64,000 nt of DNA, from positions 288,001 through 352,000 of the forward strand of contig CALSPG010000001.1 of the NCBI GenBank assembly GCA_943788175.1. The letters are read 5' to 3'. Shown here one piece after another: positions 43,045 through 46,647 of the stretch. The notes under the pieces were generated by a model that ran no database searches, was not told where the DNA came from, and saw only the letters and a program-made list of their open reading frames with translations. The position numbers and the translations under genes are program-made. The stretch comes from an uncultured bacterium. Its GTDB lineage: Bacteria; Fidelibacterota; Marinisomatia; Marinisomatales; UBA1611. Position 1 is the stretch's first letter. Each line of letters starts with the position of its first letter.

Positions 43045-44076
43045 CTAATAAGATATTAATAATGAGCCCAAACCGTTTGTTGCCTCCCAAAAGTTATATA
43101 AACTAGTACCATCATCTTCTAATTTCGAAAACCATTCAGCCGTTTCATCAACCTTTAGCCAATCATCCTCTGAAAGTGAATTATCTGTAATAACAATAGC
43201 TAGAAGATTGAATTTTTTTTGAGACTCAGCATAAGTAGGAAATCGTTGTCCTAGACGTTCAATTAATGTTTCTGAAGTAAAAGTAGTTTTTTGATGTGCT
43301 GTAAAATCAAATGTTGTCTCATTTATCGATAAAGCAGTTATATCAGTAAACATATCAAAATTATTCAAATCTTGAATATCTAACATACCCATTAGATATA
43401 ACTCTAATTCATTATAAGGCACACCATTCCCTCCATTAGCAAAGGGCCCAAAACTATCTACTGTATAAGAATTATTTCCATTGTCTAAGAGAGAGGATTG
43501 TTGAAATCCGCCAAGTTGTCCAGGTGTACTACCTCCTGTGAATCCCCAATGACCTGTATATAAGTAAGAGCTTAGTTCTTCTCCCTGTGAATCAACTGAG
43601 TGTGTGGGTAATGCATAGTTTGCCCAATTATGAGCTAATTCATGCAATGCTGGGCCGTATTTTAGATATTCCAAGCCGGTTAATTGCATTACCGCTTTTA
43701 ATTTTCCATTTGAGCCATAATCTAGAGAATTATCATAGATCTGAAATCCTAAACCTGAAATGCTATTAGATACACCAATAAGTTTGCCATAATAATTTAA
43801 ATTTTCAGGGATAGACGGCTCATCAAGTATTAAAAAAATAAAATCATAACTATCAGGGAAAACCTCATAAATATCGTTTATGACTTTTAGCCTTTCTTCA
43901 GTATTTGTAAAGCCATCGTTTCCAACCCATGATTCATATTCGCCGGAACTCATTTTTAAAGATGCTACACGATTATTTTCATGATATGTATATTTAAAAA
44001 TTGTATCAGTGTTGGACTGTTTATCTTCACAACTATAAAAACAGAAAAGTACGAACACTATAGTATATTTTTTCAC
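43045..44076 (-). CDS. Lipoprotein, putative zinc metallopeptidase
   Basis: FYSC lipobox; LHELAHNW HExxH, downstream HWG and LELYLMG. Confidence 0.7.
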   Translation of the reverse strand: MKKYTIVFVLFCFYSCEDKQSNTDTIFKYTYHENNRVASLKMSSGEYESWVGNDGFTNTEERLKVINDIYEVFPDSYDFIFLILDEPSIPENLNYYGKLIGVSNSISGLGFQIYDNSLDYGSNGKLKAVMQLTGLEYLKYGPALHELAHNWANYALPTHSVDSQGEELSSYLYTGHWGFTGGSTPGQLGGFQQSSLLDNGNNSYTVDSFGPFANGGNGVPYNELELYLMGMLDIQDLNNFDMFTDITALSINETTFDFTAHQKTTFTSETLIERLGQRFPTYAESQKKFNLLAIVITDNSLSEDDWLKVDETAEWFSKLEDDGTSLYNFWEATNGLGSLLISY

Positions 44077-45227: not shown

Positions 45228-45728
45228 CTAATTAGATTTCTTAGGTCCGATATATATTTTTTTTACAAGTGAAACAGGCAGAAAAAACAAAACTTCAAAC
45301 ATAAAATTCAATCTACACGTTTTACTATCAATTATTTCAATTGGGCTTATACTAAAACCTTTACCATCTTTTGTGTTTTTTGGGCTTACTACAAATTTCA
45401 TTGGGCCAATGGTGCGTAATAGATTCCTTATAGTTTTATAGCCTTTTATTTTTTCGTTTGGCATCAAATTATTATCTTCATTGCTCCTGTTAATGATATC
45501 AATAAGTAGAATAACTTTCTCTTTAAATATGACCTTTTCCCACTTAACAGTGCCTTTTTCATAACTAAAACTAGCATCTTTCGACATTAGTGGGTTCGGA
45601 TGAGATTTCCGTAAAGATTCAATTAGTGATAAAAAATGATTTTTCCCGCCAAATAATTTTGCATGATCAGTAATCTGATTTTTCAATTCTAGCTTTTTAT
45701 CAATATCTAGCGAGTCATAATTATTCAT
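45228..45728 (-). CDS. Hypothetical protein
   Basis: 166-aa ORF. Confidence 0.6.
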   Translation of the reverse strand: MNNYDSLDIDKKLELKNQITDHAKLFGGKNHFLSLIESLRKSHPNPLMSKDASFSYEKGTVKWEKVIFKEKVILLIDIINRSNEDNNLMPNEKIKGYKTIRNLLRTIGPMKFVVSPKNTKDGKGFSISPIEIIDSKTCRLNFMFEVLFFLPVSLVKKIYIGPKKSN

Positions 45729-45768: not shown

Positions 45769-46605
45769 TTATTTTAACATAACCATCTTACGAGTTTGTA
45801 TCATATCTTCAACATATAATGTATATAAATACATACCAGCAGCTACTCTTACATTTTTATCATTTTTTCCGTTCCATATAATCGTTTTATATCCTTCAGA
45901 TTGAAAACGATTTAAAAGAGTCCTGATTTTATTACCGTCAATATCAAAAATAGAAATATTAACAAAACTATTCTTTGATAAGTCATATGCTATGTTAGTT
46001 GTAGGGTTAAAAGGGTTTGGATAATTATTACGTAATGTAAATAATTCAGGTTTCAATTTATTTTCAATCGATAGTGATGTGTTTTTAATTTCTAATATTA
46101 TATTTTTGATATACTGGACATCTTCAAAGCTTGCTGGGTTATAAGGGGTCATGCTAAAAGAAGTATCAATAAATCCTTCATTATTGATAAAGAAAACATC
46201 TCTTTGGTTAGCTCCATATTCCGACCAAACAGGATAATTATCTAAACTATCATCTTGAACCCATGGCAGAATTCGCCCATTTAACATTCCATCTAGAGAA
46301 CTGGAATACTGATCCTTACCAATACCAATAAATTTGACATCTAGTATGTTTTCAGATAGAAGTTCTAGATATAAATCATTTAAAAGCTCGAACCGAGCCC
46401 TGCAGGTACCTCAGTATTCGTGAAAAAAGCCAAGTACTAAAACGTTGTCTGTAAAATATGACGGCCCAATTAATTCGCCAAAGGTATCAGAATCAGGATT
46501 TATATCTTCCAAAGTAAAATCGTTCTGACTAAAGAGATTTGCAGAAAATATAATTAAATAAAAAGAAATTATATATGTTCTTAAAACGTTATGAGCAGAT
46601 AACAT
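45769..46605 (-). CDS. Secreted selenoprotein: thioredoxin-fold (Prx-like/SelP-N-like) UxxC domain plus FlgD/T9SS-A-like CTD; Sec at TGA 46411-46413
   Basis: Track ORFs 46411..46614 and 45769..46287 are in frame, joined by 41 sense codons: ...GFFHEY-U-GTCRARFELLNDLY...; about 278 aa from ATG 46605. Confidence 0.88.
46383..46401 (-). promoter_or_regulatory. Putative bacterial SECIS hairpin
   Basis: mRNA AGGGCUCG-GUU-CGAGCUUU; G-initiated apical loop 16-17 nt 3' of the UGA. Confidence 0.75.
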
Positions 46606-46647
46606 GATTTTCAAAATTCAAATTATTATAAATGGTTAACACTGAGC

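Follow-up and report, generated by a model that had tools for sequence, protein, structure and literature searches.

The window analysed here is a stretch of 64,000 nucleotides, and on its minus strand positions 45769..46605 hold a predicted selenoprotein gene that conventional translation splits. Under translation table 11, the region yields a 67-aa ORF (46411-46614) and a 172-aa ORF (45769-46287), both on the minus strand. When TGA is translated as selenocysteine (Sec, U), 45769-46614 forms a single unbroken frame, in which the lone odd codon is the TGA at 46411-46413. The first-pass annotation had proposed that the two ORFs are one frame broken by this TGA alone; the translation agrees, and the peptide strings quoted there are all found in the translated frame. 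Counted from the ATG at 46605, the gene comprises 278 codons including the Sec codon and ends with the TAA stop at 45769-45771, and Sec is residue 65. The frame translation also offers an alternative TTG start at 46614 (minus strand), from which Sec is numbered U68. A near-identical homologue, the twin L037, starts at the same Met as ATG 46605. Neighbouring genes encode an MFS transporter and a protein of the endonuclease/exonuclease/phosphatase family, and there is also an unknown 166-aa ORF. The 166-aa ORF lies directly downstream of the selenoprotein gene (45228-45728, minus strand) and has no Pfam match at E<=0.001, nor has a 343-aa ORF further on (43045-44076, minus strand).

The TGA has been recovered in independent samples. 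It is kept in a 94% identical contig of a metagenome-assembled genome (MAG; L040), and the stretch is present in runs of 13 studies. Three RNA-library runs, belonging to two studies, also yielded contigs over the UGA, none of them with a listed difference at that place: X15 (1289 nt) and X16 (550 nt) bridge it, and X17 stops 21 nt past it. The raw DNA reads of run X23 do not reach it. These RNA-library contigs show presence and not transcription. An assembly error at the TGA is ruled out by L040 together with the RNA-library contigs.

Both ends of the protein carry features of exported proteins. The predicted signal peptide (residues 1-26, 46528..46605, minus strand) was read by eye as one Arg and a hydrophobic run, followed by Gln27. 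A Gln stands straight after the equivalent hydrophobic N-terminus in 25 of the 36 family proteins of alignment A3. Such an N-terminal Gln habit has been described for secreted proteins of Bacteroidetes, and the Gln of this family resembles it. At the other end, residues 195-275 (45781..46023, minus strand) form a predicted T9SS type A C-terminal sorting domain, which matches TIGR04183 with 32.8 bits (cut-off 23) and confirms the FlgD_ig/T9SS sorting domain that had been recognized by eye. The Pfam model of the T9SS tail (PF18962) scores 26.4, just under its cut-off of 27. The genome contains PorU (583.6 bits, cut-off 420) and SprA (586.9 bits, cut-off 200), and 81 tail matches were found in it, the selenoprotein's among them. 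The protein shares with type A cargo of the type IX secretion system a tail over the TIGR04183 cut-off and a genome that encodes PorU and SprA, and its N-terminus looks like the signal peptide of such cargo; here a selenoprotein would be the cargo. In the literature, no connection between selenoproteins and T9SS or type IX secretion was found; the few papers containing both terms use each of them once and appear unrelated. The SprA match lies outside the window (G000:C7:328244-334275) and is composed of four pieces, one of which (328662-329009, 108.2 bits) has an in-frame TGA, for which a frameshift, a break in the assembly or a further recoding site may be responsible.

The architecture varies among relatives. 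A sorting tail is present in 21 of 36, five of these 36 sequences being truncated at the 3' end. In many relatives with a length of about 510 aa, a right-handed beta-helix separates redox domain and tail, and others bear a lamin-tail domain, dockerin repeats or the look of a lipoprotein. Six (L021, L038, L120, L121, L135 and L138) are lipoprotein-like without any tail. These six bring up the possibility of a real selenoprotein that stays in the periplasm like ResA, TlpA or DsbE, its C-terminal domain being a FlgD-type Ig-like module. FlgD_ig matches the domain in Pfam as well as the T9SS tail does (27.4, with a cut-off of 27, vs 26.4), and the nearest solved folds are extracytoplasmic, membrane-anchored reductases. 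An enzyme beyond the outer membrane has no obvious reductant, which counts against sorting to the surface, and a periplasmic site would solve that problem. Such a location is nevertheless improbable: the tail exceeds the TIGR04183 cut-off, about 80 further tails of this PorU- and SprA-encoding genome end in the same pattern, and among relatives the tail often follows the beta-helix, the lamin-tail domain or other modules of extracellular type. Secretion of the selenoprotein by the type IX system is accordingly the reading kept below.

The redox domain (residues 28-172, 46090..46524, minus strand) belongs to a family for which a curated NCBIfam model exists, NF053656, 'TUGYCR motif thioredoxin fold (seleno)protein'. 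The match reaches 115.5 bits (E 1.8e-33, cut-off 100) over 144 of the 146 profile positions, which correspond to residues 31-175 in TTG numbering, and a six-frame search of the genome places it identically with 109.4 bits. The thioredoxin-fold U-x-x-C domain claimed at first sight is therefore borne out. The local motif is Y-U-G-T-C-R, as compared with T-U-G-Y-C-R in the family name, and both have U/C-x-x-C-R where the first helix begins; C-x-Y-C is the usual form among Cys relatives in the databases. Within the motif Sec65-Gly-Thr-Cys68, the partner Cys68 is encoded by the TGC at 46402..46404 (minus strand), and its column shows no variation in either of two sets of homologues (37 and 36). 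No paper using the NCBIfam name TUGYCR was found.

A thioredoxin fold can be assigned to the window's protein through family membership, the available AlphaFold model being that of a Cys homologue's domain (pLDDT 91.9, built on 37 sequences). In this model, helix 1 spans residues 40-58, and the first Cys, residue 39, immediately precedes it. Foldseek comparison of the model retrieved ResA as the best match (1su9, E 2e-8, TM 0.69-0.75), followed by DsbE/TlpA-like proteins, Sco, AhpC/Bcp and GPx, and a profile search of solved chains likewise placed ResA first (E 4.1e-5). Proteins of the ResA/TlpA/DsbE group are also exported, with a redox pair spaced by two residues at a helix start. The likeness is one of fold only: sequence identity to ResA is 18-21%, Sec stands here in place of the first Cys, and the ResA NCBIfam model matches 2 of 36 relatives at E<=0.001. 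In ResA a Pro-containing loop precedes a strand, which we take to be its cis-proline; at this position the selenoprotein family has an invariant Arg instead.

Peroxiredoxins show a similar layout, in which a proline-tryptophan-acidic stretch is followed by an invariant Arg that opens a strand, and the invariant Arg of the family presumably sits where peroxiredoxins have their catalytic Arg. The Thr found in peroxiredoxins three residues before the reactive residue is absent here. A canonical peroxiredoxin was rejected as an identity for the protein, which scores 16.7 bits against AhpC/TSA (PF00578), under the cut-off of 26; the genome's true Sec-peroxiredoxin scores 110.9 bits.

A resemblance to the N-terminal domain of animal selenoprotein P had been suggested in the first-pass annotation. 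That domain is likewise a secreted thioredoxin-fold UxxC domain. The SECIS of selenoprotein P is a 3'-UTR element; an in-frame bacterial SECIS-like hairpin is predicted here. The Sec-rich or His-rich tail of the animal protein is absent, with one U in the frame. In Pfam, the window's protein gives weak matches to Thioredoxin_8 and AhpC-TSA and none to SelP_N (PF04592) at E<=1. Among 37 relatives at E<=0.1, all matches being weak, Thioredoxin_8 is matched by 31, AhpC-TSA by 28 and SelP_N by 5, the best SelP_N E-value being 2.5e-4. The likeness is present, but it is weak and unspecific, and no better than that to AhpC/TSA or Thioredoxin_8. A specific bacterial relative of the selenoprotein P N-domain, as distinct from a generic thioredoxin-fold protein, is very unlikely on these grounds. 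The five matching members speak for it, as does L122, which covers SelP_N profile positions 24-122; its 17.9 bits, the single SelP_N score seen, fall under the 23.2-bit cut-off, and the two other models are matched by more members with better E-values. The ocean (GOS) selenoproteome paper notes the same low similarity for its family 'Prx-like 2' (PMC2398784). A member of a bacterial thioredoxin-fold family remains the preferred identity of the domain.

The in-frame UGA is retained in nearly all of the best family matches in the phylum. A search of the genome with NF053656 returned two genes with one TGA each, the one described here and a paralogue on contig C8. Among 40 relatives, 31 of 33 matches carry one TGA, and the two without it are weak matches (33.5 and 23 bits). 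The family was found in 76 of 301 genomes of the phylum; a hand count of the best 100 phylum matches (E<=1.4e-13) gave 86 with one TGA, 13 with two and one with none. Family genes were extracted from 39 of the 43 loci scanned, the remaining four (L123, L124, L125 and L128) having not fitted the search pattern. TGA occupies the same column in all of these genes, so that U is read in 39/39, three residues ahead of the invariant Cys. Alignments A2 and A3 were made without the window's own protein and its twin, and some alignments exclude L032 and L034, which contain withheld bases. A whole-protein query for related loci was swamped by T9SS tails: of 80 loci, six were read, and the redox domain was present in L040 only, the other five giving tail matches only, including L051 and L101, which match over most of the query.

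Homologues with Cys or TGA at this column were anticipated, and both were found. The sole TGA-free match among the best 100, L146, is a natural C-G-T-C form. Among 244 database relatives, 67 have C at the Sec column and 96 have W; 73 are fragments without a residue there, and 8 have other residues. Three clusters holding Cys forms bear the names of Planctomycetota or Verrucomicrobiota.

The paralogue lies outside the window (G000:C8:48185-48553; L020:1441-2211) and encodes 257 aa with the motif T-U-G-T-C. It has the architecture of the gene itself, with signal peptide, redox domain and T9SS tail, and its score of 88-95 bits is just under the NF053656 cut-off of 100. A sister subfamily with two TGA codons, which would encode U-[A/G]-G-U, was observed in L148, L149, L150 and L151 (genomes G278, G283, G046 and G308). 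In these proteins, of about 220 aa in all, dockerin-like repeats follow, and the subfamily accounts for the 13 two-TGA sequences among the best 100 phylum matches. A diselenide motif is possible for U-[A/G]-G-U.

Public records split the gene and its paralogue at the UGA, and give the larger piece no name beyond 'T9SS type A sorting domain-containing protein'. The cluster of the paralogue holds ORFs of 56-57 aa and 172 aa on contigs of up to 89,960 nt, and its public members are named Marinimicrobia or Neomarinimicrobiota, the group to which the host probably belongs. Taken at face value, these records would make the locus a pseudogene, or two small genes parted by an ordinary stop. That has almost no chance of being correct and is already contradicted by the evidence. 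The TGA is retained in 99 of the best 100 family matches across the phylum, the homologue alignment shows the protein sequence conserved on both flanks of the Sec column, the downstream ORF alone would lack signal peptide and active site, and a hairpin that follows the UGA covaries. One continuous gene with a recoded UGA is the interpretation that fits these observations.

The hairpin (46383..46401, minus strand) begins 9 nt after the UGA and has a predicted 8-bp stem with the loop GUU. Folded without comparison, the 86 nt around the UGA do no better than shuffles (z 0.15). Comparison of 39 homologues is more telling: 6 of 8 pairs have changed on both sides, 86.9% of cells pair, and the covariation score is 0.446 vs 0.226 in shuffles, of which 0/500 reach the observed value, with slid-partner controls at <=0.196. 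The putative hairpin is thus convincing through comparison across homologues and not from a single fold. This gene's own stem has a compensatory U-A pair where the common stem has C-G, at the price of two substitutions in the protein (Ala for Ser, Glu for Gly). A G-GUU-C apex is common to the hairpins after the UGA of this gene, of the genome's selD and of its Sec-peroxiredoxin. Of the 39 sequences, 7 leave pair 19-25 open and 20 leave pair 13-31 open, and in the paralogue type the stem register appears by eye to be shifted by one. The hairpin overlaps codons of a conserved R-x-R-F-G motif, so selection on the protein accounts for some of its conservation. The hairpin is best described as a putative conserved element that matches a bacterial SECIS in position and form.

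The genome, of 2.27 Mb in 12 contigs and 92% complete, encodes the corresponding machinery. The first-pass annotation had pointed to selA, selB, selC and selD as the genes to look for, and profile searches returned all of them over their cut-offs: selA (467.4 bits), selB directly downstream of it (316.5 bits), selD (396.1 bits), which itself has one in-frame TGA, and one tRNA-Sec with anticodon tca (57.3 bits). The SelA/SelB/SelD/tRNA-Sec system very probably decodes the UGA at 46411-46413 as selenocysteine. Outside Sec sites, TGA is a normal stop in this genome. It terminates 172 of the 970 stop-to-stop frames of at least 300 codons, RF2 (prfB) is present (509.9 bits, cut-off 370), and among the genome's tRNAs the anticodon tca belongs to tRNA-Sec only, tRNA-Trp having cca; the absence of a global recoding, as had been argued from ordinary TGA stops nearby, is upheld. 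These facts leave practically no room for TGA being read as Trp or another standard residue, genome-wide or locally, since the W forms in the databases sit on short contigs, split ORFs from long contigs fall into the same 90% clusters, and one W form (P0011) is 95% identical to the genome's paralogue, whose DNA reads TGA. W at the Sec column is the product of gene calls that take TGA as Trp. The redox domain is invisible in most catalogues because records split at the UGA or read it as Trp, and the practical point is one of annotation.

The family itself is already known, as indicated by the curated NCBIfam model and by its fit to 'Prx-like 2', reported by Zhang and Gladyshev in their 2008 study of the GOS selenoproteome (PMC2398784). 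In that paper, 'Prx-like 2' is assigned to pfam04592 with E>0.001, is said to have 'low similarity to pfam04592', and has a UxxC motif with 99 Sec and 100 Cys sequences. UxxU variants, a marine bias and domain fusions are also described there, along with the lack of a strong homologue in the genomes sequenced by then. All of these traits recur here: UxxC, weak SelP_N likeness, UxxU sisters, marine origin, fusions, and both Sec and Cys forms. The family is very probably 'Prx-like 2', matched by description and not by sequence comparison. A 2022 review lists a 'Prx-like thiol:disulfide oxidoreductase' with UxxC/UxxU (PMC9312934). On this match, the family was recovered from the first ocean metagenomes and was then hostless; it is now placed in a Marinimicrobia-like phylum, in which it almost always has Sec and mostly bears a tail for type IX secretion. 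Both the tail and the placement in a phylum usefully extend what was known of this marine selenoprotein family.

Taken together, the comparisons of sequence indicate that the two ORFs are very likely one gene for an exported selenoprotein, in which a redox domain with Sec65 stands between a predicted signal peptide and a T9SS tail. The pre-protein would cross the inner membrane by the Sec translocon and fold in the periplasm, from where the SprA/PorU type IX system could pass it to the cell surface or the medium. The selenol would then be the attacking nucleophile and form a selenenylsulfide with Cys68. The enzyme may act as a selenol/thiol oxidoreductase that reduces or shuffles disulfides, or may reduce peroxides in the manner of peroxiredoxins. 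From these features, we infer an extracellular selenol/thiol oxidoreductase or peroxidase. The organism is known from metagenomes only.

A broader interpretation, with a chance a little short of even, is that the Marinimicrobia-like phylum uses selenium-based redox catalysts outside the cell. It would combine a family that nearly always has Sec and owes its sorting to T9SS tails or dockerins, two-Sec sister proteins (U-x-G-U) that could form a diselenide, and the resistance of Sec to irreversible over-oxidation. Such resistance would be needed in oxygenated seawater, where the enzyme has no thioredoxin system to rely on, and might explain the choice of Sec. If this holds, part of the selenium demand of marine bacteria goes to exported enzymes. 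With this family, selenium chemistry at or outside the outer membrane of bacteria becomes a testable proposition, a point that is modest but real.

Beyond this gene there are further selenoprotein candidates. A crude scan of the genome for genes with a UGA followed by a hairpin gave 3 hits, selD being missed by design. They are the gene described here, the Sec-peroxiredoxin, and an AT-rich hairpin with an in-frame TGA at G000:C5:471563, which may be due to chance. The Sec-peroxiredoxin is of the Bcp type and is encoded outside the window (G000:C5:278829-279338; L152:130-639). Beyond its AhpC-TSA match of 110.9 bits, it has U at the peroxidatic position, a hydrophobic N-terminus, and its G-GUU-C hairpin 16 nt after the UGA. 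In L150, an open frame with the motif W-U-P-A-C (plus strand, frame 2) adjoins the UxxU gene and represents a thioredoxin-like candidate selenoprotein.
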